Assembly (NCBI GenBank): GCA_951812955.1
Contig: OX638340.1
Location: 1,120,001-1,184,000, forward strand
Reading direction: 5' to 3'
DNA length: 64,000 nucleotides
Source: an uncultured Gemmatimonadota bacterium
Lineage (GTDB): Bacteria > JAAXHH01
Below the pieces are notes generated by a model, which worked only from the letters and a program-made list of their open reading frames with translations, was not told the origin of the DNA and searched no databases. Of this stretch, positions 19,678 to 64,000 are shown one piece after another (the first letter of the stretch is position 1; each line of letters opens with the position of its first letter). A program made the translations under genes and the position numbers.

Positions 19678-22027
19678 TCTTCGTATCCTGCGCTTCCTTT
19701 TCCTTTTCCTCCGCCCTATTCTGACGCTGCATAGGGTTCTCCGGCGCCTGGCGGCGCTGCTTGAACAGCTGGAAGCGCGTGGGCTTAGACTGCGGTGGCC
19801 ACACGTTGTTGCTCAGGTCCGTGTCCGCGGTCTCCAGGAAGGGATCGAGGGTGATCCTTTCCACCGGCTGATCCATGGCGAACACCTTGGTTACGCGGTC
19901 GTCGCGTAGCCGCCAGATCTCCGCGGGGATCCGCTGTACCTCCCTGGTACCGTCCTCGAATTCAAACTCCAGGATCACCGGCATGACCAGGCCGCCTACA
20001 TTCTCGAAGGTCAGTTCGTAGAAGTGCTTGCCGCTTTCGAGCAGGGCCAGGTCCTCGGCATCCAGGTTCTTCACGTAGTTTTCATACTCTTCCTGGTCGA
20101 GGATCGATACTTCGAAGGGATCGTACCTGTTATAGAAATCGACCAGGGTCGAATCCTGCCGGACCATGGGATTCGGAATATCGCCCTGGTTGCGCGTGTA
20201 GCTGATGCCCCGGTTTTCTTCCCCTCTGTTCGCCCTGGCGATCTCTTTCTCCACTTCCGGATCCCGCGTGTTGATCTGGAACCACTTCACCTCGCCCAAT
20301 CCGAGATCCACGTGGTCCGTGCTGTAAAACCAGCCGCGCCAGTACCAGTCCAGGTCCACGGCGGACGCGTCTTCCATGCTGCGGAAGAAATCTTCGGGCG
20401 AAGGATGCTTGAACATCCAGCGCTGGGAATAGCTGCGGAAGGCATGGTCGAATAGCTCCCGCCCCATGACCGTTTCCCGGAGGATGTTCAGCGCGGTGGC
20501 GGGTTTACCGTATGCATTGGGGCCGAGTTGAAATACGGATTCCGAATTCGTCATGATGGGCGAGATCCGCGCCACGTCACCCTTCATGTAATCCACGATC
20601 CGGTGGGCCGCGCCGCGGCGGGATGGATACTCGGTATCCCATTCCTGTTCGGCCAGGTACTGGAGAAAGGTGTTCAGTCCCTCGTCCATCCACGTCCACT
20701 GCCGTTCGTCCGAATTGACGATCATGGGGAAATAGTTGTGCCCGACTTCGTGAATGATCACGCTGATCATGCCGTACTTGGTCCGTTCGCTGTAGGTGCC
20801 GTCCTTTTCCGGCCGGCCGCCGTTGAAGCAGATCATCGGGTATTCCATGCCGATGCGGTTCGTGTGCACGGAGATGGCCGTGGGATAGGGATAGTAAAAG
20901 GTATATTTCGAATAGACGTCTATCGTATGGGCCACCACCTTGGTGGAATAGCGCTCCCAAAGGGGGTTGCCTTCCTTGGGATAGAAGGACATGGCCATCA
21001 CCTTCTGCAGACCTGACTGGACCTCCATGGCGTCCCAGATGAACTTGCGCGAACTGGCGAATGCGAAGTCCCGGACGTTGTCCCCGTGGAAGACCCAGGT
21101 CTTCTTCTCCGTGGCCCGTCCCTTTTCCGCCTCGACCGCTTCCGCCTCGGTGACGATCATGACGGGCTCGGCGGCGGTCCGCGACCGTTCAAACCGGGAC
21201 TGCTGCTCGGCCGTAAGCACGTCCTTCGGATTCTGAAGTACGCCCGTGGCCGTTACGATATGGTCGGCCGGTGCGGTTATGCTGACCTTGTAGTCACCAA
21301 AGGGCAGTGTGAATTCACCACGGCCGAGGAACTGCTTGTGCTGCCAGCCCTCCACCTCGTTGTAAACCGCCATGCGGGGAAAGAACTGGGCGATGGCGTA
21401 CAGGTAATTGTCATCTTCCTCGAAGTACTCGTAGCCCGAGCGACCGCCGATCTTCATCCGGTCGTTGATGTTGTACCACCACTTGACCTTGAAGGTGTAG
21501 GACTTGCCGGGCTGAAGCGGCTCGGGGATATCCACCCGCATCATCGTCTTGTTGATGGTGTGGGACAGCGGATTGTCCCGCCGATCCCGCACCCACTCGA
21601 TCTTGAAGCCGCCGTCGAAGTCGTTCAGCAGGCGCTGCAACTGGGCAAAACTCATCCGCCCCGAAACCCGGCTGCCCGCGATCTTCCGCGTGTCCGAATC
21701 CCGGGCGCGCACGTTCTGGTCGAGTTGCACCCAGAGGTAGGCCAGTTCGTCGGGCGAGTTGTTGTGGTAGGTGATGGTCTCGGTGCCATGCAGCCGCTGC
21801 GTCTCGTCGTCCAGCTCGATCCGCATCTCGTAGTCTGCCTCGTTCTGCCAGTACTGATGGCCCGGCGCGCCGGATGCGGTCCGGTATACGTTCGGCGTCG
21901 GGGCTTCCTGCTTGATCTGGCGGAACTTGCTTCGGTTGATCGTCTCGGGACCCTTCTGGGCGGTAGCGGTGGTGGTAGCGCACGCGACGGTCAACGCGCA
22001 TATAAAGTAAAATAGGCGCTTAGCCAT
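19664..22027 (-). CDS. Secreted gluzincin zinc metallopeptidase (M1-like aminopeptidase family)
   Basis: Signal peptide. HEVGHNYF (HExxH) followed about 18 aa later by WMDEGLNTF (third-ligand Glu). 787 aa. Confidence 0.65.
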   Translation of the reverse strand: MAKRLFYFICALTVACATTTATAQKGPETINRSKFRQIKQEAPTPNVYRTASGAPGHQYWQNEADYEMRIELDDETQRLHGTETITYHNNSPDELAYLWVQLDQNVRARDSDTRKIAGSRVSGRMSFAQLQRLLNDFDGGFKIEWVRDRRDNPLSHTINKTMMRVDIPEPLQPGKSYTFKVKWWYNINDRMKIGGRSGYEYFEEDDNYLYAIAQFFPRMAVYNEVEGWQHKQFLGRGEFTLPFGDYKVSITAPADHIVTATGVLQNPKDVLTAEQQSRFERSRTAAEPVMIVTEAEAVEAEKGRATEKKTWVFHGDNVRDFAFASSRKFIWDAMEVQSGLQKVMAMSFYPKEGNPLWERYSTKVVAHTIDVYSKYTFYYPYPTAISVHTNRIGMEYPMICFNGGRPEKDGTYSERTKYGMISVIIHEVGHNYFPMIVNSDERQWTWMDEGLNTFLQYLAEQEWDTEYPSRRGAAHRIVDYMKGDVARISPIMTNSESVFQLGPNAYGKPATALNILRETVMGRELFDHAFRSYSQRWMFKHPSPEDFFRSMEDASAVDLDWYWRGWFYSTDHVDLGLGEVKWFQINTRDPEVEKEIARANRGEENRGISYTRNQGDIPNPMVRQDSTLVDFYNRYDPFEVSILDQEEYENYVKNLDAEDLALLESGKHFYELTFENVGGLVMPVILEFEFEDGTREVQRIPAEIWRLRDDRVTKVFAMDQPVERITLDPFLETADTDLSNNVWPPQSKPTRFQLFKQRRQAPENPMQRQNRAEEKEKEAQDTKTETR

Positions 22028-22295
22028 GGATCGGTCTCCTGGTTTTCTTTAGTAGTGGTCAGCGGTCAATGCTGTACGATTCGAATTTTGGAATATATGA
22101 CGCGGGCGGCCCCGTGTAAAGGATCATACGAGGCGACGTGTGTTGCGTGCAGGGCGGCACAAGGCCAACACGGGTGGGCGGTGCCGTTCCAACACGGGCG
22201 GGCGGCGAAAATTCTAAGTGCTGGTGAGCGACGCAGTCCCCATGGATTTCAAGGAAAGCGCCAGGTTTGCGGTGGCCTGCTGAACTAAAAGCTAC

Positions 22296-22832
22296 TTACC
22301 TCGAAAAATACATGATCATGACCTCTATGTCCTTCAGCATGATCCTCAACAGTTCCGCTTCCTCTTCGTCCTCCGCATCAAGACCCACGGTTGCCAGTAG
22401 CGAGGCTACTGCAAATTGCAGGGAAAGCGTAGTATCCGTAACGGTGTATCCCACGGAAAAAGTCTCACCATCTGAAGTCGTGACGGTTATTCGATTCCCA
22501 GACACCTGGTATCGGTCAGGCTGTTCGCCGTCGACAATCACCGTTCCGTCAGACCTGAAATCAAGGGTAAGGGCGAACGTCACGTTGGATTCTCCAAGCA
22601 TGTCAGATACCACCATGTCGGCCTGGCTCGCAGTCAGGCCCTCCCCGATCAGGTACTCCCGCAGGTTGGCGGCCAGTTTGGTATCGAAATCGTTTCCCGT
22701 ATATTTCCACGTGCCGATCAGCTTCTCTGCAGGGTCCGGGTCCGGTTCCGGTGTGGGAGTCGGGGCCATCGGATTATCGTCATCTCCGCAGGCTAGCGCC
22801 ACCAGGACGGTCATCATAAGTAGAATCCGCAT
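22296..22832 (-). CDS. Lipoprotein with lipocalin-like domain (paralog of the C-terminal domain of the 18335-19042 protein)
   Basis: Signal peptide plus lipobox LAC, a Pro/Thr/Asp-rich linker, then LIGTWKYTGNDF...LREYLIGEGL...TLSLQF, alignable to [12 protein letters not shown]...[11 protein letters not shown]...LTLTLS. Confidence 0.6.
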   Translation of the reverse strand: MRILLMMTVLVALACGDDDNPMAPTPTPEPDPDPAEKLIGTWKYTGNDFDTKLAANLREYLIGEGLTASQADMVVSDMLGESNVTFALTLDFRSDGTVIVDGEQPDRYQVSGNRITVTTSDGETFSVGYTVTDTTLSLQFAVASLLATVGLDAEDEEEAELLRIMLKDIEVMIMYFSR

Positions 22833-22937
22833 ATCATGCCTCCTGCCGAGTAGGCTCGGCTATACGTGTCTTCAAGAATGGATCGGAGATGTTAACGGTG
22901 AGCTCTCCGTTTCGTCTATCAATACTTCGCTTGTGGT

Positions 22938-23246
22938 TCAAATAGATACCCTGATCGTGATGGTCTCCCTTATTGTCTCGTCGTACAGCAGGCTTTTTAT
23001 TCTGCCCTTCACCACATATCGCCCCAAATCGTTGAAACCGTGATTGAGTGACAACAGGGCCAACTTGTTGTGCTGGGCCGTTGCGACTACTCTTTGGGTT
23101 GGTTCACCAGTTGTCTGAACGATGGGGTTACTTTCCGAACAGGACGCAATCGCGAACAACATTGTAATCAGTAGGATAGACTGGAATGCACGCAAGTACA
23201 ATATACACACCCTTTCTGAAGAAGTTAGGGGCACCATTTGACCCAA
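22938..23246 (-). CDS. Hypothetical small lipoprotein (in a low-GC patch)
   Basis: Track ORF. Hydrophobic stretch plus lipobox-like IASC. Sits in an AT-richer segment, so the coding status is uncertain. Confidence 0.3.
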   Translation of the reverse strand: MGQMVPLTSSERVCILYLRAFQSILLITMLFAIASCSESNPIVQTTGEPTQRVVATAQHNKLALLSLNHGFNDLGRYVVKGRIKSLLYDETIRETITIRVSI

Positions 23247-23747
23247 TGCCTATGGTACCTGCCAGTGTTGTACGCTCGCGCTATAATTCGGTGAGTGTTA
23301 TACGATTCACCGGGGGTTGGGATCTAACTCGAAGCCCTAAAAATCGGCCACTGAATTGAGCAAACTACCCCGACCAATGTAGCACGAACAATCGACAATA
23401 GCGAGTGTCATGGTTTCAAATTGAAAATATGATCTATATTTGATTTTCCAACTGAAAACCAACTTGAAAATATAAACATCGGCTTCCAAGCTGATATTTT
23501 ATGATCAAAAAGTGATTTTTATAGTATTTAATGTGACTAAATCGCATACAACCGGATGGGTCGCCTGTGCCCTTACTTGAGGATACAAAGTCGCACAGAA
23601 GTCGGTGAAGCGGGACTCGTGGCATTTTCGGGCTATTCATCGGATATTGACAGGGACAATCCGCGGATGTACCCTGAATCGACCGCCGGTCCGGCACGGC
23701 CCGGCTCTTTCGCGGAAGAACCGCGGGAACCGTTCTCGGAAGAAACC

Positions 23748-24272
23748 ATGAAATCGCAGGGCTTCTGGCTTACCTTCGCAGGCCTCCTACTGGTGTGCGT
23801 AGCATCGGACGCGGTTGCGGTGCGAATATCGGCCCACCCGTTCTACATCAGCGTCTGCCAGGTCGATCACAACCCCGATTCCGACGCGCTGGAGCTGGCT
23901 TTTCGCATCTTTACGGACGACCTGGAACAGGCCCTCGAGGCGATGGGAACGGACCGGCTGCGCCTGGGGACGGAGCGCGAAGCCGAGAAAGCCGATCTTT
24001 ACATCGGCCGTTATCTCGCGCGCCACGTCGAAATCGAAATTAACGACCAACGCGTCAGCGCCGTCTTTCTTGGAAAGGAAGTGGATACGGACGCAATCTG
24101 GTGTTATCTGGAGGTTGAGAATATCCCGCTCTTAAACACGATGACCATGACGAACACCCTGCTCCTTGAAACTTTTGAAGACCAGGTCAATCTCGTGCAC
24201 GTCAACGCCAACGGTCAGAAGATGAGCCTGGTGTTCAACGGACAGCACGTCAAGCAGACGCTGGACTTCTGA
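23748..24272 (+). CDS. Secreted hypothetical protein (174 aa)
   Basis: Internal ATG of track ORF 23556..24272, with an N-terminal signal peptide (MKSQGFWLTFAGLLLVCVASDAVA). No family recognised. Confidence 0.5.
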   Translation: MKSQGFWLTFAGLLLVCVASDAVAVRISAHPFYISVCQVDHNPDSDALELAFRIFTDDLEQALEAMGTDRLRLGTEREAEKADLYIGRYLARHVEIEINDQRVSAVFLGKEVDTDAIWCYLEVENIPLLNTMTMTNTLLLETFEDQVNLVHVNANGQKMSLVFNGQHVKQTLDF

Positions 24273-55057: not shown

Positions 55058-57418
55058 TTACGCAAGATCGGGACCGGCCAGTCGGTAACCGACCCGAGGC
55101 TCGTTAGAGATGTACGTCGGGCTTCCCGCATCATCACCCAGTTTGGAGCGGAGTTTCTTCACGAAAGCATGCACAACCCGGTTGTCTTCGGAACTTCCGG
55201 ACCGCCATACGTTGCGCAACAAATAGTCGTAAGTCACGACGCGGCCGGCGTTGGTCGCAAGCACGCGTAGTAAATCGTATTCGGTTGCGGTCAGTTTCAA
55301 AGGTTCGTCCGCCAGGGTCACCCGTCGTTGCTCGAAGTCGATGACGAGATCAATCACCCGGTAGGGCTCGGGTGGACCGGCATGCCTGCGAAGCGCCGAC
55401 TGGATTCTGGCCACCAGTTCCGTAGGCGAATACGGCTTGACCACATAATCGGCTGCTCCGATCTCCAGAGCTTTGGCAATTGTCTCGTCTCTGCCATACG
55501 CGGACAGGAAGATAACCGGCTGATCAGCCATGGCCGGCACGCTTTGCATCAGTTCGATACCGTCCGCATCCGGGAGCAGCAAATCCAGTAGTACCAGATC
55601 CGGTTGACGTGATTTAATCAGACCGGGTACGTCATTGGGATTGCCGGTCACCAGCGCCTCGAAACTCGCGTCCTCGAGTATACCCCGTATCTGTTCCAAC
55701 ACCTGTGGGTCGTCATCCACCACAAGGACCAGCGGCTTCTGCCGATTTCCCGTGTCCGGGAGTCTTTGCCTCATGAAGGAGGGCAATTCGATCATGGCCG
55801 GCGCTTCATCCGCCACAGGTATCGTAAATGTAAAACGTGTGCCTAGACCGTTACCTTCGCTCTCGACCCAGATACGGCCGCCATGCGCCTCGACAAGTCC
55901 CTTGCAGATGGCCAGTCCGAGGCCCTCCCCAACCCCGCGTCCGCGATCTTCCCGTCCGCTTCGGGCAAACTTGCTAAAAATGTGCGGCAGACGCTCTGCG
56001 GGAATCCCTCGCCCTTCATCGACTACCGAAACCGCTACGAACAACCCCTCGCGTTGCGCAAGTACCTGTATGACTGACGATTCTGGCGCGTGGCGGGTAG
56101 CGTTGGACAACAGGTTGATCAGGACCTGAACTATGCGCTGCCGGTCCACCCGCACCCGAGGCAGATCAGTAGGCAGGTCAATACTGATCTGGATACGGCT
56201 CTCACTACTGAGAAACATATTCCGAGCCTGGTCCACAATGGCAGCCAGATCCGAGTACTCGGGGGATACCGACAGCGATCCCGTCTCGATATGAGCCGCG
56301 TCCAGCAGGTCGCTGATCAACTGTCTCATGTGATCGGCCTGGTCGTTGATTATGCGGAAAAGCTGCCGGGTCTCGGCCGGGTCCAGCACCGACGGGGTCT
56401 CTAGCACGGTGGCGGCACAGCCCTTTACAGAAGTCAAGGGAGCCCTGAGCTCGTGACTCACCAAGCTTAAAAACTCGGCCCGCATTCTTTCAAGTTCTTC
56501 TATCGGCGTCATATCCTGTAAGGTAACAACCAAGGACTCGACTTCTTCCTGCGGTGAACGTATAGGCGTTGCGTTGACCAGTATCGTGACCTTCCGGCCG
56601 TCCGGAACCTCAAGTACGATCTCTTCGGCGCGAACCGGTGTGGCCTCGTTCAACGCCTCAACCAATGCGGACTTCTCCAGGGCAATCGCACGCCCGTCGG
56701 TTCGCCGCGCACTCATCACGTCCAACAAATCCTCGGCGGTGTTTCCCGGTGTCATGAGATTGCCGACAATGCGTCGCGTCTCCTGGTTAAGGGATACCAA
56801 CTTGCCACTTTGGGCGTCAATTACCACTACACCAACCGGAGACGTGTCTATCAGGGCTTCCAGGTCGGCCCTGACCCGTCGCTCATCGCCGTGCCTGCGG
56901 GCGTTTGCGATCGCCGCCCCGGCCTGCGAAGCGAACAGCGACAGCATCCCTTCATCCTCACCCGTAAACCCCTGATCGGACACTTTTCCAACGAGACTGA
57001 ATATGCCAACATGCACGCCTTGATGCCGCATGGGCATGCCCAGGTAACAACCAGCCAGTACAGGGTCCGCCGGGAACCCTAACGAGGCAAGGTGAGTCGC
57101 TAGTTCCTTGAGCCTTAGTGGACGTTGGACCTGTCGAAAAAACTCCCACAGATCGTACCCAAAAGGTAGATCTGTCAGCCGCCTGTATTCTTCGGGGCTC
57201 ACGCCATATGTGACAAAATCCTGCAGGCTGCCCGTTGCATCCATTGTACAGATTGCGCCGTATTCCGCATTGGTCAACAAGCATGCGTTTTCCACGACCT
57301 CGTGCAAGACGGTTTTGATATCAAGGCTTTCGCTGATACGCACACTTGCCTGACTTAGACCTAAGAATCGCTCCTTGAGCGATTGTATCTCCGCTTGCAA
57401 CTCTTCGATTTTGGACAT
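55058..57418 (-). CDS. Hybrid sensor histidine kinase fused to a complete OmpR-family response regulator (GAF - PAS-like - HisKA - HATPase_c - REC - winged-helix trans_reg_C)
   Basis: H-box SHELRAPLTSV, N/G boxes (LLSNATRHA, DEGRGIP, GLGLAICKGLVEAHGG), REC (LVVDDD...LLDLLLPDADG...VKP), C-terminal OmpR wing (LTATEYDLLRVLA....RVGYRL). Confidence 0.85.
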   Translation of the reverse strand: MSKIEELQAEIQSLKERFLGLSQASVRISESLDIKTVLHEVVENACLLTNAEYGAICTMDATGSLQDFVTYGVSPEEYRRLTDLPFGYDLWEFFRQVQRPLRLKELATHLASLGFPADPVLAGCYLGMPMRHQGVHVGIFSLVGKVSDQGFTGEDEGMLSLFASQAGAAIANARRHGDERRVRADLEALIDTSPVGVVVIDAQSGKLVSLNQETRRIVGNLMTPGNTAEDLLDVMSARRTDGRAIALEKSALVEALNEATPVRAEEIVLEVPDGRKVTILVNATPIRSPQEEVESLVVTLQDMTPIEELERMRAEFLSLVSHELRAPLTSVKGCAATVLETPSVLDPAETRQLFRIINDQADHMRQLISDLLDAAHIETGSLSVSPEYSDLAAIVDQARNMFLSSESRIQISIDLPTDLPRVRVDRQRIVQVLINLLSNATRHAPESSVIQVLAQREGLFVAVSVVDEGRGIPAERLPHIFSKFARSGREDRGRGVGEGLGLAICKGLVEAHGGRIWVESEGNGLGTRFTFTIPVADEAPAMIELPSFMRQRLPDTGNRQKPLVLVVDDDPQVLEQIRGILEDASFEALVTGNPNDVPGLIKSRQPDLVLLDLLLPDADGIELMQSVPAMADQPVIFLSAYGRDETIAKALEIGAADYVVKPYSPTELVARIQSALRRHAGPPEPYRVIDLVIDFEQRRVTLADEPLKLTATEYDLLRVLATNAGRVVTYDYLLRNVWRSGSSEDNRVVHAFVKKLRSKLGDDAGSPTYISNEPRVGYRLAGPDLA

Positions 57419-57688
57419 GTTTCCCCTCAGGGTTTTTGCAACTACGGACTATCAGTCAGATTGGTCGATTTCGCATGATTCAAATAGGCTGGGTTGACCG
57501 GGATCGTGTCACTTAAAAACACCTATTCATGAATGTTCAGCGTAAAATCACAATCATTAACCAAAATATCATTACCATGTCAGAAAAACCAGGAATAAAT
57601 GCCGTGTAATACACATTTTGGTCAGTTATACTATTGACAGTTTTCCGCCCTCCCTTGAGATCGACCCGATTTTGTTGGTGAATTAAGC

Positions 57689-57994
57689 ATGCGAAAGGAT
57701 CCCGCATTGCTGTACGCCATAGTCTTAATGAGTGATGATAACCACACCCTGACAGACTTGGATCGCATTGTCAATGCTTCCAACGTCGTACCTGCTGAAG
57801 TTCCATTCCTGAAGTTCCCCCACGTACACTTCGTGATGTATGATGGGACCTCAAAAGCTCTAAGTACCCACCTTGGTCTGGCACGAAGGAAGATCCCGGC
57901 AATCGTGTTTGAGATAACCAGGAACAGCTATGCCGGCTATGGACCTGCTGTTTTCGATACCTGGATCAGAAAAAACTCGGAAGAGATTCGTTGA
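57689..57994 (+). CDS. Hypothetical protein (101 aa) in low-GC island
   Basis: Track ORF in an AT-richer region. No recognisable motif. Confidence 0.3.
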   Translation: MRKDPALLYAIVLMSDDNHTLTDLDRIVNASNVVPAEVPFLKFPHVHFVMYDGTSKALSTHLGLARRKIPAIVFEITRNSYAGYGPAVFDTWIRKNSEEIR

Positions 57995-58091
57995 GAACCC
58001 TGGTCAAGTGCTCTCACATTCACATGCGAGTTTTTGCCAGTACACGAATACGTTGCTGAAGCAGCAGTCAAACTTTCGCTAAGGTGAGAAC

Positions 58092-59147
58092 ATGAATCGT
58101 GTTCTAGTCGTGCATGCGCTGTCGTTGGTGATCGGTTGTGCGGGTGACCAGGGACCGATTGGCCCCGGGGGGGAACAAGGTCCATAGAGCCTTCAATGTT
58201 CAGAGGGACCGGTAGGGCCGCAGGGCACGCGGGGCGAGCAAGGGCCGCAGGGAATAGCCGGGCCGACCGACCCACAGGGCTCACAGGGTCCACAGGGGAC
58301 TGGCGCGCCGCTGAATTGGGCAGACGTGATCGAGGAGGGGAACCTCTACGACGCGGTCTATGTGGTCGGTGTCTAGACTGAGAGTTACTGGACCATTATC
58401 GGCACGGCTTTTGCAGCCTACTACGACGACAAGATGTGGACCAACGCCCACGTCGTAAAGCGTGCTATGGAGGAAGCGCAGAATAAGATTGGCGAAGTGC
58501 GAACATTCGTGGCGCGAGCAGGAGAGCGGTTTGTGGATGAAGGGCAAGGTCCGGGATTTATCTACTGGAACGGCGCTATCATCCACGAAGACTATGATGC
58601 TGAGCAGTATCCCCATGACAGCCCCGACGTCGCCCTGCTCCGCCTGGAGGAGAATGTTACTGGACCACTGCCCGAGCTCTTGCCGCGTGAATTCAGCCAG
58701 GACCTGCGCATAGGCCAGCCGCAGGGAATATTGGGATATCCAGGCGGGCTGGGACATTAAACCCTCGAGCTCGTATTGCTGACGTTCAAAGAAGGCACGC
58801 TGTCTGCGCTGCGGCCCTTCCTGAACGAGAGCTTTGACGGAACCAATACGGGGATGTTGCTGCACTACAATTTCCTTACAGAAGGCGGGACACGCGGGAG
58901 CCCCGTCTTCGATCACAACGGTTACATCGTAGGCATCAATTTCGCCGGTCTTGATAAAGAAATCGAGTTCGGAGAGGAACTCGTCACGATTGAAACGTCG
59001 CACCAATTCGGCATACACGTGGAGGCTCTTTGGCAAATGATCGACCAGGTTGGCGGAGCGCCGGCCGTCGCCGCGCGCGTTACGGTACCGGAAGGATCTT
59101 ACGAGCCATTTCCGGCCGGCTGGATTGGTGAGACTATCGCGCCCTAG
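58092..59147 (+). pseudogene. Collagen-like / trypsin-like (S1) serine protease lipoprotein gene interrupted by three in-frame stop codons (TAG 58185, TAG 58375, TAA 58758) with no frameshift
   Basis: A single frame-0 reading gives, in order: signal peptide plus lipobox (LVIGC); GDQGPIGPGGEQGP*...[31 protein letters not shown] (Gly-X-Y repeats); ...VYVVGV*TESYWTIIGTAFAAYYDDKMWTNAHVV (catalytic His region); DVALLRL (Asp); ...GH*TLEL...GGTRGSPVFD (Ser-region). Track ORFs 58434..58760 and 58776..59147 are in the same frame as the ATG at 58092. Confidence 0.55.
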
Positions 59148-59210
59148 GAATTACAATCCGGAATTGTCCCGAGTTTTTTCAACCAATTATCCACACGAAA
59201 GGAATGAACC

Positions 59211-59762
59211 ATGAGATCCGTCCTATTTATCGTTGCCATGCTGGTTTTCACAGCCTGCGAGGGCAAGGTAGGACCGGCTGGACCGGCTGGACCGGCTGGA
59301 TCAGCCGGTCCACAGGGTGTAAAGGGCGATACCGGGTCGCTGGGACCGAAGGGTGACAGTGGTGATCCTGGACCGGCAGGGCCGGCAGGGCCGGCAGGAC
59401 CGCAGGGGCCGGCAGGACCGCAGGGGCCGACAGGGCCGGCAGGACCGGAAGGCGGTGGTACCACGGAGCCGCCACCACCACCGCCGGAGCCGCCACCACC
59501 ACCGCCGCCACCGCCGCCACCGCCGCCACCGCCGGCCGGCGACGGAGCCTGCGTAGCCGGGTTGGTCGTGAATCCGGGTGAGAGTTGCGTTTACAATGGC
59601 TACGACTTTTCCGTTAGTTCCGAAGGCAGAGGGCGCATTGCCTTTTTCTCCGCGGGAAGCGGTATAGATGCAAGGGGTACCACGATCAACGGCGTACTTT
59701 GGAACTTCCATGCAACCCGAAACAGTGGCAGTAGCAGTTGGACCATTCATTCTGCTGATTGA
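59211..59762 (+). CDS. Lipoprotein with collagen-like Gly-X-Y repeats and a poly-proline ([22 protein letters not shown]) tract plus small C-terminal domain
   Basis: Signal peptide plus lipobox FTAC, about 25 GXY triplets, then a 24-residue Pro run encoded by a (CCG/CCA)n repeat. Confidence 0.65.
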
Positions 59763-60305
59763 ATGGTTTCACCAGGTACGCTTCATCTCAATGGTTTCCT
59801 CTTCATATGGTGTCAACCAAATCTGTGTGCGAAACACCGCTGTCGGTAACCTGGCTGGAACGGAGTAACAATCGTGGTCGGTGAATTGTATCGGTTAATA
59901 AGTTGCATTGCGGCTTTCTGGTTTTGGGCGGATCCTTACCGTGCAACAACGATAGCGGGGTCGAGTCGTTATCTGTTCGTGCGATGGTTCTGTTCGTCTT
60001 GACTCCCAGACCGGCGAAGGCAAGGGAAGCGGGAGTTCGCGCGACGAAGCCTTGTTGTCCGCTTTTCCGATTGTTTGTTCTAAACTCAGTATCGACAGCA
60101 AAACACTCAGTCGATGTGAACAGAACTGGATTTCGAGAACGCCAGACTTTCGGGAACGTGACCATTGTAATCCCTGCTGAGAAGATTGTCACATGCTTTG
60201 AGTCTTCTTGAGGATGAAGTTTATCAATGAACGAAATTCCAATGCAAATGGAGGTTGATAAGCTGTAGTGCACTCCAAAATGGGACAAGTAGTTAAGCTA
60301 CAGGT

Positions 60306-61263
60306 TTAAACAGGTGGTTTCATTTGCTCGAACTCGACCGAAGGCGTGTAGCTTAAGGCGGGGTGCAAGCGTTTACGATTGTAGAGCTTGTAGATGAAGT
60401 AACCGATGCGTGATCGGGCTTCTTCGAGGGATTCGTACTCGTAGAGATAGCCCTCCTCGTATTTGAGCGTCCTGATGAAGCGCTCTGCTTTGGCGTTGTC
60501 ATAGGGGTTATCGCGCCGGCTCATGCTGATTCTAATACCGGCCTTTTTGTGGGTTTCGACATAGGCTTTGGAGGCGTACTACACGTCCCGGTCGGAGTGA
60601 TGTACCAAGCCCTTTGGTACCGATCTGGATGCCAGGGCGCTGTCCAAGGCATGAAGGGCAAGACCTGCATCGAGGGTTCGATTCAAAGCCCAGCCGATGC
60701 ATTTTCTGCTGCAGGCGTCAAGGACCACGGCCAGATAGATCCATTCGCCGGCCAGGCGGATGTAGGTGATTTCGGTCCCCCAGAGTTGATTGACTCCGAT
60801 TGTGTTCAGTTCCGGAACCAATTGGCGTAGAAGGCACGATCAGGGTTCGAGTCGGTGGTCGTTACGAAGACCTTGAGTCGCAGGGCAATCCGGTTGTCTT
60901 CGTACATGAGGCGCAGGACGCGCTTATGGTTTCAACAGGTAGAAAAGGCGTCTGAGTGTCCTAGTCAAAGAACGGTAGCCTTAGGAAGACCAGGTAAGGG
61001 AGAGCTTGTGTATCATGTCCCGCAGTTCAAGGGCCGGATCCATACGGCCTCAGAGACCGAGGTAGTAGCTGGATCGACCGATCGAGAGCGTCCTGCGAAT
61101 CCGGGTGACCACGAGACCGTCTACTGAGGGCGTAATTGGTGGCGCCACCTGTGAATCCGCTTGGGATGAACCTAGTGTTCCGCGGCTGACTGAATGATAG
61201 ATTTACCCGAATCGGCTTCCTAAAGGACTTGGAGCTTGAACTCACGGGTGAACAGACGGCGTT
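60306..61263 (-). mobile_element. Degraded IS3-family insertion sequence (OrfA/OrfB transposase pseudogene with multiple in-frame stops)
   Basis: Minus-strand fragments read: OrfA start MTLKRRLFTREFKLQVL* (ATG complement 61261-63); ...IGRSSYYL; NHKRVLRLMYEDNRIALRLK; QLWGTEITYIRLAGEWIYLAVVLDACSRKCIGWAL...VHHSDRD (DDE/rve core); DNPYDNAKAERFIRTLKYE (C-terminus, stop at 60306). These are interrupted by several stops, and the ends/IRs are not delimited. Confidence 0.6.
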
Positions 61264-61388
61264 TCAGAGTCATGAAGCGCCTCCTCGATCGGTAGGAAGC
61301 TTAACTCTGTCTCCCAGTCAAGGGTGCGGTACGATTTAACGTAAACTGACAGATGAGCCTGCAACAATCAACAAGAGGCAAGGAAACC

Positions 61389-64000
61389 ATGCCCTTGATT
61401 TACATTCGTGCCATACCCGTGTTCATATGTCTTGTATTGTTCACTCTGACCACCTGCGGCAAGGACAGCCCCACCAGACCGAAGCCGCCAGATCCACCGC
61501 CGCCAGTAGTGCCCGTAGCCACCCGCATTGACATCACTCCGCCTTCTGCCACGTTGAACTCGGTTGGCCAGACTATTCAACTCAACGCAAGAGTCCTGGA
61601 TCAGAACAACGCGCCAATTAGTGGCGCAGCCGTGACATGGACCAGCAGCGACAACGGCGTGGCTACCGTCACCGTCCAGGGGTTGGTAACTGCGGTAAAG
61701 AACGGCACGGCACGGATCACAGCCCGATCAGGTAATATCTCTGCAAATGCGAATGTCACTGTGTTACAGACAGCCGGTAGTATCGTTATCGAATCGGCTA
61801 TGACGACGCTAACAGCCATCGGTCAGACCGTCCAGCTGACGGCGAATGTACTGGATCGTAATGACAAGCCGGTAGCCGGTGCTGTCGTGACCTGGACGAG
61901 CAGCGATGCGTCCGTAGCAACGGTCAACGAACAGGGGTTGGTGACGGCCGTCAAGAGTGGCGGCACACGGATCACGGCACGGTCAGGCAGCGCCTCAGCA
62001 GGCATCACTGTTACGGTAATGCAGTCGGTAGCAAGTATCGTGATAGAGCCTGAGATGGCGACGCTCATGTCGATCGGCGAGACCGTGCAACTCACCGCCA
62101 CCGTTCTAGATCAGAACCGGCAACCAGTAGATGATGCCGTCGTCACCTGGCAGAGCAGCGATGAGGAAGTGGCCACCGTAAGCGCTGCAGGACTCGTTAC
62201 CGCCATCGGCAACGGCATGGCAACTGTCACCGCCAGATCAGGCAACGCCTCGCAGACGGCAACCTTGACTGTGACGATCCTTGATACACGACGCGACCGA
62301 GAAGCCCTTGCCGCACTGTATCATAGTACGGATGGACCGAATTGGACCAACAACACGAACTGGCTGAGCGATGCGCCTCTAGACTCATGGCATGGCATAG
62401 GAACTACCACACTTGGAGAGGTTCAGTATCTGAATTTGGGGGAGAACAATCTCCACGGCATCATCCCACCTGAAATAGGCAAACTTCAAAAACTGACAGT
62501 ACTGGCGCTCTACGGCAATAGTTTGACCGGCAACATCCCGCCCGAAATCGGACAGTTACAGAACCTGACAGATCTTAATCTCGGCGACAACGAGTTGAGC
62601 GGCCCTATCCCCACTGAAATAGGGCAACTTCAAAAACTGACAGGTCTTACTCTCGCCGGCAACCAGTTGAGCGGTCCAATCCCCCCTAATATAGTGCAAT
62701 TGCTGGAACTAAAATTCCTGTGGCTCGGCGGCAACCAGTTGAGCGGTCCTATCCCCACTGAAATAGGGCAACTTCAAAAACTGACAACTCTATGGCTAGG
62801 CGCTAATCAACTGACCGGCAACATCCCGCCCGAAATCGGACAGTTGCGAAACCTTACTGACCTAAATCTTGATTTTAACCAGTTGTCTGGATCCATACCC
62901 CCCTTAATCGGACAACTACAGCATCTGAAATTCCTGCGGCTGAATGGCAACCAGTTGACTGGATCCATTCCGCCCGAAATCGGACAGCTTAGCATGCTTA
63001 GGTTCTTGAACATGGCCTTCAATCCCAATCTTTCGGGGCCATTACCGGTAACAATCACCTCTCTTTCCAACATGGAATCCCTGAGTTTGCACTACACTCA
63101 AGTATGTATTCCTCCTACCGCCCAATTCCAGTCATGGTTAGACGGGATAGAAAACATAAGAGGCGATATTTCTAGCTGTCCAGGGCCAGAGGGACCAGTG
63201 GAACCGGAAGAACCGGAAGAACCGGAAATGCCGCCTCCTGTCGGAGAGCGTCTGGACGTGAGGATTGTTTATTTTGTTCCTGCAAATCATACTGGATACC
63301 CGAACATAGATGCCAAGATAGATTCGTTGGTCAACATCGTCAAATTGACTTATGCGGAGATATTTGAATTTCATGGCTTCGGCGATAGAACCTTTCAGCA
63401 CGAGCAAAATGCGGATGGCACGGCCAGGGTATATCATGTGAAGGGCCAATACGATGGCGAATACTATTCCAGCGAAACATTTTTTAAGGTTATACATACC
63501 GAATTGGAACAGATATTCGATTTAGAATCGAATATTTACTGGGTCGTATTGGATGCTATCGATGCAACTGTAGATGGTTATTGCGGGCAAGGGTATGGTG
63601 ATCTTCCTGAGGGCGGCGCGTTTTTAATACCCGGACCAAACGACTACTGGTTGGAGGATCGCGGGTGGAGTTGTTTCAACCCATCAGTTGCATCCCACGA
63701 AATCGGACATTCCTTTGGTCTAACCCATGACCTGCTCAGAGACGAAGTGCGTGTCGAGTCCTCATATCAAGATGACTGGATGATTACTTCGTATTGTGCC
63801 GCCGAATGGATGTCGGTACATCCATTCTTCACCGGCGAACCAACCACGGGGAATGACAATGAGGGTGAAATAAGTCTAAGGTCGATTTCTGATGCTTCAT
63901 CCGAGACTATCCGCCTGGTTTTCGATGTGAGCGACCCCGATATGCTGCACCAGGCTCAACTTCTTGATAGAAACGGAGAAACGATAGCCTACCGTGGATT
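61389..64000 (+). CDS. Large lipoprotein: 3 x Big_2 (bacterial Ig-like) domains, about 10 plant-specific-type leucine-rich repeats, and a C-terminal metzincin-like zinc protease domain (partial, continues past window end)
   Basis: Manual translation from the ATG at 61389; not in the track because it is open to the window end. Lipobox LTTCG. Three ~85-aa repeats of TLxxxGQTVQLxAxVLDQNxxPVxxAxVTWxSSDxxVATV...GLVTAVxNGTAxITARSG. Then LRRs of the 24-residue plant-specific class (LxxLxxLxLxxNxLxGxIPxEIGQL). Then HEIGHSFGLTHD (HExxHxxGxxH/D). GC content and codon usage are visibly lower and more AT-rich than the rest of the window. Confidence 0.7.
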   Translation, partial: MPLIYIRAIPVFICLVLFTLTTCGKDSPTRPKPPDPPPPVVPVATRIDITPPSATLNSVGQTIQLNARVLDQNNAPISGAAVTWTSSDNGVATVTVQGLVTAVKNGTARITARSGNISANANVTVLQTAGSIVIESAMTTLTAIGQTVQLTANVLDRNDKPVAGAVVTWTSSDASVATVNEQGLVTAVKSGGTRITARSGSASAGITVTVMQSVASIVIEPEMATLMSIGETVQLTATVLDQNRQPVDDAVVTWQSSDEEVATVSAAGLVTAIGNGMATVTARSGNASQTATLTVTILDTRRDREALAALYHSTDGPNWTNNTNWLSDAPLDSWHGIGTTTLGEVQYLNLGENNLHGIIPPEIGKLQKLTVLALYGNSLTGNIPPEIGQLQNLTDLNLGDNELSGPIPTEIGQLQKLTGLTLAGNQLSGPIPPNIVQLLELKFLWLGGNQLSGPIPTEIGQLQKLTTLWLGANQLTGNIPPEIGQLRNLTDLNLDFNQLSGSIPPLIGQLQHLKFLRLNGNQLTGSIPPEIGQLSMLRFLNMAFNPNLSGPLPVTITSLSNMESLSLHYTQVCIPPTAQFQSWLDGIENIRGDISSCPGPEGPVEPEEPEEPEMPPPVGERLDVRIVYFVPANHTGYPNIDAKIDSLVNIVKLTYAEIFEFHGFGDRTFQHEQNADGTARVYHVKGQYDGEYYSSETFFKVIHTELEQIFDLESNIYWVVLDAIDATVDGYCGQGYGDLPEGGAFLIPGPNDYWLEDRGWSCFNPSVASHEIGHSFGLTHDLLRDEVRVESSYQDDWMITSYCAAEWMSVHPFFTGEPTTGNDNEGEISLRSISDASSETIRLVFDVSDPDMLHQAQLLDRNGETIAYRG

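Follow-up and report, generated by a model that had tools for sequence, protein, structure and literature searches.

A collagen-stalked lipoprotein protease gene with three in-frame stops in a Gemmatimonadota genome, very probably a recent pseudogene

One reading frame on the Gemmatimonadota contig OX638340.1 encodes, in succession, a lipoprotein signal, a collagen-like Gly-X-Y stretch, and a serine protease domain of the S1 fold, and this frame is interrupted by three in-frame stop codons. The locus hence raises the question of whether it is a gene in decay, an intact gene spoiled by sequencing or assembly, or a gene whose stop codons are decoded. These three options were listed in the initial annotation of the window, that is, of the whole stretch of 64,000 nucleotides that was analysed. 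The answer given here is that the protease locus is very probably an ordinary, recently inactivated (unitary) pseudogene of a surface lipoprotein gene; a full-length product from it is not expected.

The features of the locus and of its surroundings are collected in Table 1. Translation and end-to-end alignment with intact homologs bear out the first description of the locus as a single frame with three in-frame stops and without frameshift: no frameshift was found against the ortholog, and all length differences are multiples of 3. The accompanying statement that the frame contains no indel is strictly wrong, as a lineage-specific deletion of 6 nt is present in the 3′ part of the gene. With the stops masked in the conceptual protein, the Trypsin_2 profile (PF13365) is matched over its full length (profile positions 1–144) with 58.7 bits against a cut-off of 27.6. 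This match, together with the end-to-end collinearity with intact homologs (E = 8e-153), puts the continuity of the frame far beyond chance. His120 (TNAHV; 58449–58451) and Asp179 (SPDVAL; 58626–58628) are kept, both at (near-)invariant columns of a 25-sequence alignment. The Collagen profile of Pfam (PF01391) reaches 21.6 bits in the window copy and stays under its cut-off of 27.2, whereas family homologs exceed this threshold in precomputed annotation. The putative lipobox, VIGC at residues 13–16, fits the pattern [LVI][ASTVI][GAS]C as judged by eye. The start codon and a Shine–Dalgarno-like AAGGTGAG are still present, and stop 1 (codon 32 of 351) costs the protein 91% of its length. An antisense ORF of 251 aa (58281–59036, minus strand) was rejected as a gene and is regarded as a shadow ORF: no family matches it, and the length over which the antisense frame stays open varies from 67 to 288 codons in homologs.

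Table 1. Coordinates of the protease locus, its lesions, and its neighbours in the window
Feature	Position	Strand	Remarks
Hybrid histidine kinase/response regulator (HK), synteny anchor	55058..57418	-	100% match to P0121, on a 3.81-Mb contig
Lipoprotein collagen-like/S1 (Trypsin_2) serine protease, very probable pseudogene	58092..59147	+	351 codons and terminal TAG; three internal stops
Putative signal peptide with lipobox (…LVIG, then C16)	58092..58139	+	Assigned by eye; homologs have LIAC/AIAC at the aligned site
Collagen-like Gly-X-Y stretch, codons 18–71	58143..58304	+	Three Gly positions lost; stop 1 inside
Stop 1, TAG, codon 32	58185..58187	+	Ortholog CAG; Gln in 15/20 homologs; C-to-T
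Stop 2, TAG, codon 95	58374..58376	+	Ortholog CAG (VGGQTE); closest protein homologs GAG (Glu); C-to-T or G-to-T
Trypsin_2 (S1 fold) domain, residues 104–282	58401..58937	+	Pfam match
Substitution cluster L211Q (58722 CAG), T213I (58728 ATA), P230L (58779 CTG)	58722..58781	+	(Near-)invariant sites
Stop 3, TAA, codon 223	58758..58760	+	Glu (GAA/GAG) in 19/24 homologs; ortholog CGT, divergent patch
Nucleophile codon, S268R	58893..58895	+	CGC (Arg); family AGC (Ser); Ser in 23/24 homologs
Lineage-specific 6-nt in-frame deletion	58980..58992, near 58986	+	GLDKEI--EFGE versus GLVSIIEDEFGE; not in any close homolog aligned
Second collagen-like lipoprotein	59211..59762	+	183 aa, open frame; downstream partner gene
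Decayed IS3-family element	about 60306..61273	-	OrfA (HTH_Tnp_1) and -1-frame OrfB (rve)

The window protein belongs to a sizeable family. A search of 5.8 billion proteins yielded 642 relatives, the best of which are 68–78% identical and collinear over the whole length, with E values down to the one quoted above. Nearly all of these best relatives are about 345–400 aa long (typically about 355 aa) and are annotated as Collagen plus Trypsin_2; the close ones are intact, and the named ones come from Gemmatimonadota MAGs. The family layout unites a lipoprotein signal and a collagen-like stretch with a Trypsin_2 domain. This family of collagen-stalked lipoprotein S1 proteases is uncharacterised but widespread, and it is multi-copy, with two or more copies in several other genomes (e.g., L016). 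Closer relatives were sought among species-representative genomes and JGI metagenomes, where the best matches have 60–63% and 65% identity, respectively, and about 86% DNA identity is the closest that any genome in the collections searched comes.

No internal stop was found in 10 other loci examined, and one unrelated TAG was found in locus L012. The latter (MKWU01010679.1, positions 710–712) is a single in-frame CAG-to-TAG change at the conserved GDQGP Gln just after the lipobox. The L012 copy is otherwise intact, including the catalytic motifs, and its TAG is an independent nonsense hit or else a polymorphism or an error. Three N-terminally short relatives were considered as disrupted copies and rejected: P0012 contains a run of Ns at a scaffold gap, and the genes of P0021 and P0022 were called too short, their collagen region being open upstream of the call. 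A further member, P0016 (322 aa, on a 47-kb ENA contig), is intact and lacks both the His (WTTAYV versus WTNAHV) and the nucleophile Ser (GGTNGSP); judged from these motifs, it may be a natural non-catalytic "pseudo-protease" of the family.

The protease domain of the family resembles SplB and the V8 glutamyl endopeptidase (S1B-type, Trypsin_2) in its domain match, in its His and Asp motifs (TNAHV, DVAL), and in the motif EGGTSGSPVFD, which aligns with TESGNSGSPVLN of SplB. In a PDB search with the protease domain as query, solved structures match the family only in the Ser region, with an E value of about 2e-4. The Spl/V8 enzymes, for their part, lack the N-terminal lipobox, the collagen-like stalk, and the conserved C-terminal tail (…Y.PFP..WNGETIAP) of the family, and the window copy differs from them also by an Arg at the nucleophile position and by its interrupted frame. 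Bacterial collagen-like proteins include the Scl and Bcl types. The family shares with the collagen-like proteins of PF01391 a short GPQ-rich Gly-X-Y run after the signal sequence, but its head domain is a protease and not a globular domain of the Scl or BclA type. The window copy is further set apart from the PF01391 proteins by its sub-threshold score, the replacement of three Gly positions, and the stop within the repeat.

One line of evidence for the reading as a pseudogene is an intact ortholog at the same position, which was found with the aid of the neighbouring HK gene. After the identical P0121, the next relative of this HK is 71% identical. The ortholog was reached via P0241, the second member of the 90% cluster of the HK, which is located on three short contigs: L017 (JGI 3300002734, PetF_10006351), L018 (GCA_001753005.1, LXNJ01003730.1), and L019. 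The window, L017, and L018 have a common gene order of PhyH, aminotransferase, HK, small ORF, protease gene, and collagen-like lipoprotein. In L017 and L018, the protease gene next to the same HK is intact, with 356 and 351 aa, respectively, and carries AGC at the nucleophile codon. The initial annotation had named orthologs devoid of any homologous continuous gene as the finding that would make the frame continuity coincidental; the positional ortholog in L017/L018 is instead continuous and intact, and it supports the first of the three options, recent pseudogenisation under relaxed selection.

The DNA identity between the window and L017/L018 amounts to 86.5% in the flanks and 75.9% in the protease gene. 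Divergence from L018 is mosaic within the gene: 60-nt stretches of 52–63% identity (58453–58512, 58573–58626, 58747–58806, and 58927–58986) alternate with stretches of 80–88%. In addition, the syntenic ortholog is less similar to the window protein (65% identity) than is P0012 (78%), a homolog not anchored by synteny. One explanation that this mosaic pattern suggests is recombination between alleles or between paralogs; another is that surface loops are under diversifying selection.

The ortholog also bears on how the stops arose. It had been pointed out that all three stops lie one C-to-T transition away from Gln codons, and it had been proposed to look for CAG or CAA at these positions in orthologs. 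The arithmetic is right, but only two of them have support for descent from a Gln codon: the ortholog has CAG at both TAG sites and CGT at stop 3. Stops 1 and 2 are best read, on the codons aligned, as CAG-to-TAG changes, with the family column at stop 2 being mixed (Glu in 10, Arg in 8, Gln in 1, and others; n = 24). Stop 3 would go back to GAA by the family consensus, and CAA-to-TAA is possible; since the ortholog carries CGT and 19 of 24 family members carry Glu, a G-to-T change is no less likely.

The stops are accompanied by missense changes at sites that the family conserves. At columns conserved to at least 85% in the 25-sequence alignment, the window copy shows 12 missense changes; together with the 3 stops, these make 15 departures. 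The foremost of them concerns the active site. The window has GTRGSP in place of the family's GTSGSP (GGTSGSP), whose first Ser aligns with the Ser of GNSGSP in SplB and V8 protease, which is the nucleophile of S1 proteases. The block GGTRGSPVFD, which was at first taken as a Ser-region block that is present, is therefore a dead active site, its nucleophile Ser—found in the ortholog and in all but one of the 24 homologs—being replaced by Arg. The AGC codon is seen in L001, L003, and L005 as well as in L018. Three Gly residues of the collagen-like stretch are lost by G33S (58188 AGC), G36C (58197 TGT), and G60D (58269 GAC), at columns that are Gly in 20–21 of 20–21 homologs and at which the ortholog has GGT throughout. 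Besides the cluster in the protease domain given in Table 1, further changes at conserved columns are P138T, T102I, G202S, A15G, and D234E.

The 15 changes are of mixed types: four C>T, three G>A, three G>T, two C>A, with C>G, T>A, and A>C once each. This tally derives stops 2 and 3 from the family-consensus Glu; with stop 2 derived from the ortholog CAG, it becomes five C>T and two G>T. The direction is from G/C to A/T in 12 of the 15. Such an excess is the ordinary mutational bias of bacteria and not a specific signature. The deamination-type transitions that the initial annotation proposed are hence not what the changes at conserved sites display. The same spectrum weighs against a targeted hypermutation of the locus, e.g., by a diversity-generating retroelement or a deaminase, which could account for the C-to-T changes at two or three of the stops and for a mosaic gene that is 76% identical to its ortholog between flanks of 86.5%. 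No template repeat and no reverse transcriptase are found nearby, and the intact sister P0012 has as many lineage-specific changes. Mosaic divergence is also seen between intact orthologs, which points to fast evolution of a surface protein and not to damage of the window copy; altogether, hypermutation is barely credible.

The missense changes likewise bear on the possibility that the organism has an intact gene and that the stops are base-calling errors or a product of a chimeric strain consensus in a MAG. The sequence seems to come from a single contig of 3.81 Mb among sponge-associated MAG relatives, and a second sample of the same species was not found in the collections searched, which leaves some room for such an artefact. 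However, three independent substitution errors within 1 kb would be exceptional, and errors would not single out 12 conserved sites, the nucleophile and three Gly residues of the stalk among them. No sequence motif is common to the stops, and the neighbouring genes are clean—the HK, the second collagen-like lipoprotein, and an 870-codon Big_2-LRR protein. An artefact is thus improbable.

Decoding of the stops, either by a suppressor tRNA elsewhere in the 3.81-Mb genome or by programmed or context-dependent read-through, would yield a full-length, catalytically inactive collagen-stalked lipoprotein. The frame preserved throughout and the retained start codon and Shine–Dalgarno-like sequence agree with this, and the intact P0016, without His and Ser, implies that non-catalytic members may exist. 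Yet TAG and TAA end 12 and 9, respectively, of 49 well-supported ORFs of the window (21/49)—in line with the early remark that both are genuine stops there—and two different stop codons occur among the three. The ortholog and 24 homologs have sense codons at the stop sites, and a read-through product would still bear the damaged collagen Gly positions and invariant core residues. The only tRNA within the 64-kb window is Trp-CCA, with no suppressor tRNA there, and Rfam gives no match to a recoding RNA in 57000–61500, where a single sub-threshold miRNA hit is a chance match. Read-through is not supported, given that TAG and TAA terminate ORFs of the window, that two stop codons are involved, that the ortholog has sense codons, and that no recoding RNA was found; it is highly improbable, and the initial annotation rightly ranked it low.

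Of similarly slight probability is a split gene, in which the pieces between the stops act as functional small proteins, e.g., the ORFs 58434–58760 (108 aa) and 58776–59147 (123 aa). A possible start codon stands at the head of both pieces, but neither has a signal peptide, and the split would part the His/Asp half of one S1 fold from its (dead) Ser half, with Arg at the nucleophile position. No homolog examined has this layout.

The pseudogene appears to be young. In a relative-rate test with various outgroups, the window copy has 21–27 unique amino acid changes versus 7–15 in the intact sister P0012 (L001), which shares 81% DNA and 78% protein identity with it. Lineage-specific nucleotide changes are spread over the codon positions as 13/16/32 in the window copy versus 16/13/35 in P0012, without a clear neutral signature. 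Departures from the 85% consensus (12/167 in the window copy) are within the upper range of intact members (12 in P0016 and 13 in P0020). As the counts of nucleotide changes and their codon-position spread are near those of intact P0012, against an excess of about two-fold in unique amino acid changes, purifying selection for most of the history of the gene and a recent death are indicated. By the same token—both the consensus-departure and the codon-position test placing the window copy near intact members—the case for decay is based on the kind of the lesions (nonsense, nucleophile, and collagen Gly) and not on their number. The order and timing of the lesions we infer from relatives of which the nearest have about 86% DNA identity.

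Three stops without a frameshift were regarded as unusual for random decay when the locus was first described. Of the 351 codons, 59 (17%) are one step from a stop, namely 20 Gln, 31 Glu, 6 Trp, and 2 CGA. The share of single substitutions that create a stop is 3.8%, or 4.7% under illustrative GC-to-AT-biased spectra. Indels are put at about ten times rarer than substitutions in a statement of PMC6054270 that cites PMC4978911. With indel-to-substitution ratios of 0.05–0.2, the probability that all three of three disrupting lesions are nonsense is roughly 0.01–0.2, and the absence of frameshifts is mildly improbable at a ratio of 0.1 or higher. The combination is thus mildly improbable as such but unremarkable for a case that was chosen by eye.

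By the criteria of Danneels et al. (2018; PMC6054270), which call for an intact syntenic ortholog and more than 20% of the length affected, the window copy classes with unitary pseudogenes, its premature stops removing more than 20% relative to the intact syntenic orthologs. The likeness extends to the further damaging substitutions with G/C-to-A/T bias, the one multiple-of-3 deletion, and the decayed IS neighbour. It differs from such pseudogenes in having no frameshift yet and in its low age: changes at first and second codon positions are not clearly more frequent than in an intact sister gene.

The IS neighbour has the IS3-family organization of an OrfA with HTH and, after it in the -1 frame, an OrfB that contains an rve domain, and it scores with NF033516 at 207.7 bits in a spliced reading and at 178.4 bits in a single frame against a cut-off of 160. 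Five in-frame stops are located in its homologous parts: TAG at 61220, 61172, and 60579, TGA at 61050, and TAA at 60981. OrfA contains two in-frame TAG, and OrfB contains TGA, TAA, and TAG together with two non-programmed frame changes; unlike a functional IS3 element, the remnant is not mobile. These frame changes and the three kinds of stop codon contradict the earlier view that the remnant repeats the stops-only pattern of the protease gene.

Downstream of the protease gene, every locus examined (window, L001, L007, L008, L012, and L018) has a gene for a second lipoprotein with a long collagen-like run; this pairing of the two genes is conserved, and they may form an operon. Genomes differ in the C-terminal domain of the second lipoprotein. 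For the C-terminal 75 aa of the window protein, no counterpart was found in syntenic genes elsewhere, except for a weak match in L007. Its poly-Pro linker, a run of about 25 Pro codons (CCG/CCA) at 59463–59537, is likely to vary in length and to be hard to assemble. Further downstream, a lipoprotein at 61389–64000 (plus strand) runs off the window end with 870 intact codons; it features three Big_2 domains, about nine LRR repeats of 24 residues, and a C-terminal HEIGHSFGLTHD (HExxH), which is a zinc-metalloprotease-like motif. In L003/L004, the protease homolog is flanked by giant Big_2-LRR proteins of a similar kind. The GC content is 0.50–0.58 at 22001–24000 and 56001–64000 and about 0.61 elsewhere in the window, and the low-GC block 56001–64000 contains the pseudogene, the IS3 remnant, and the LRR protein.

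On the preferred reading as a recent pseudogene, the ancestral protein would have had a lipid-anchored signal peptide, a short Gly-X-Y stalk, and a protease domain of the S1 fold (Trypsin_2, SplB/V8-like), and its gene would have occupied the present site between the hybrid histidine kinase gene and the gene of the second collagen-like lipoprotein. Selection on it would then have relaxed in the lineage of the window. An intact protease paralog with GGTSGS (P0064, 39% identity) appears to share the 3.81-Mb chromosome with the pseudogene, and other genomes carry the family in several copies, so redundancy is a plausible reason for the relaxation. Point mutations with a G/C-to-A/T bias would subsequently have piled up, bringing two or three nonsense changes at Gln/Glu codons, the loss of the nucleophile Ser and of three stalk Gly residues, and several changes at invariant core positions, alongside the 6-nt deletion. 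The inactivation would be recent relative to species divergence, and the lack of frameshifts would be a sampling outcome of rare indels and of the 17% of codons that are one step from a stop.

Annotations of the locus should mark it as a pseudogene and not as three small ORFs or a recoding candidate. As a phenomenon, it matters little, being a normal young bacterial pseudogene; as a worked example, it illustrates that genes rich in Gln and Glu can be expected to show, on occasion, several stops without a frameshift. The wider family, which is multi-copy in sponge-associated Gemmatimonadota and is adjoined by Big_2-LRR proteins in two loci (the window and L003/L004), is a candidate host-interaction module of lipid-anchored, collagen-stalked S1 proteases together with a second collagen-like lipoprotein.
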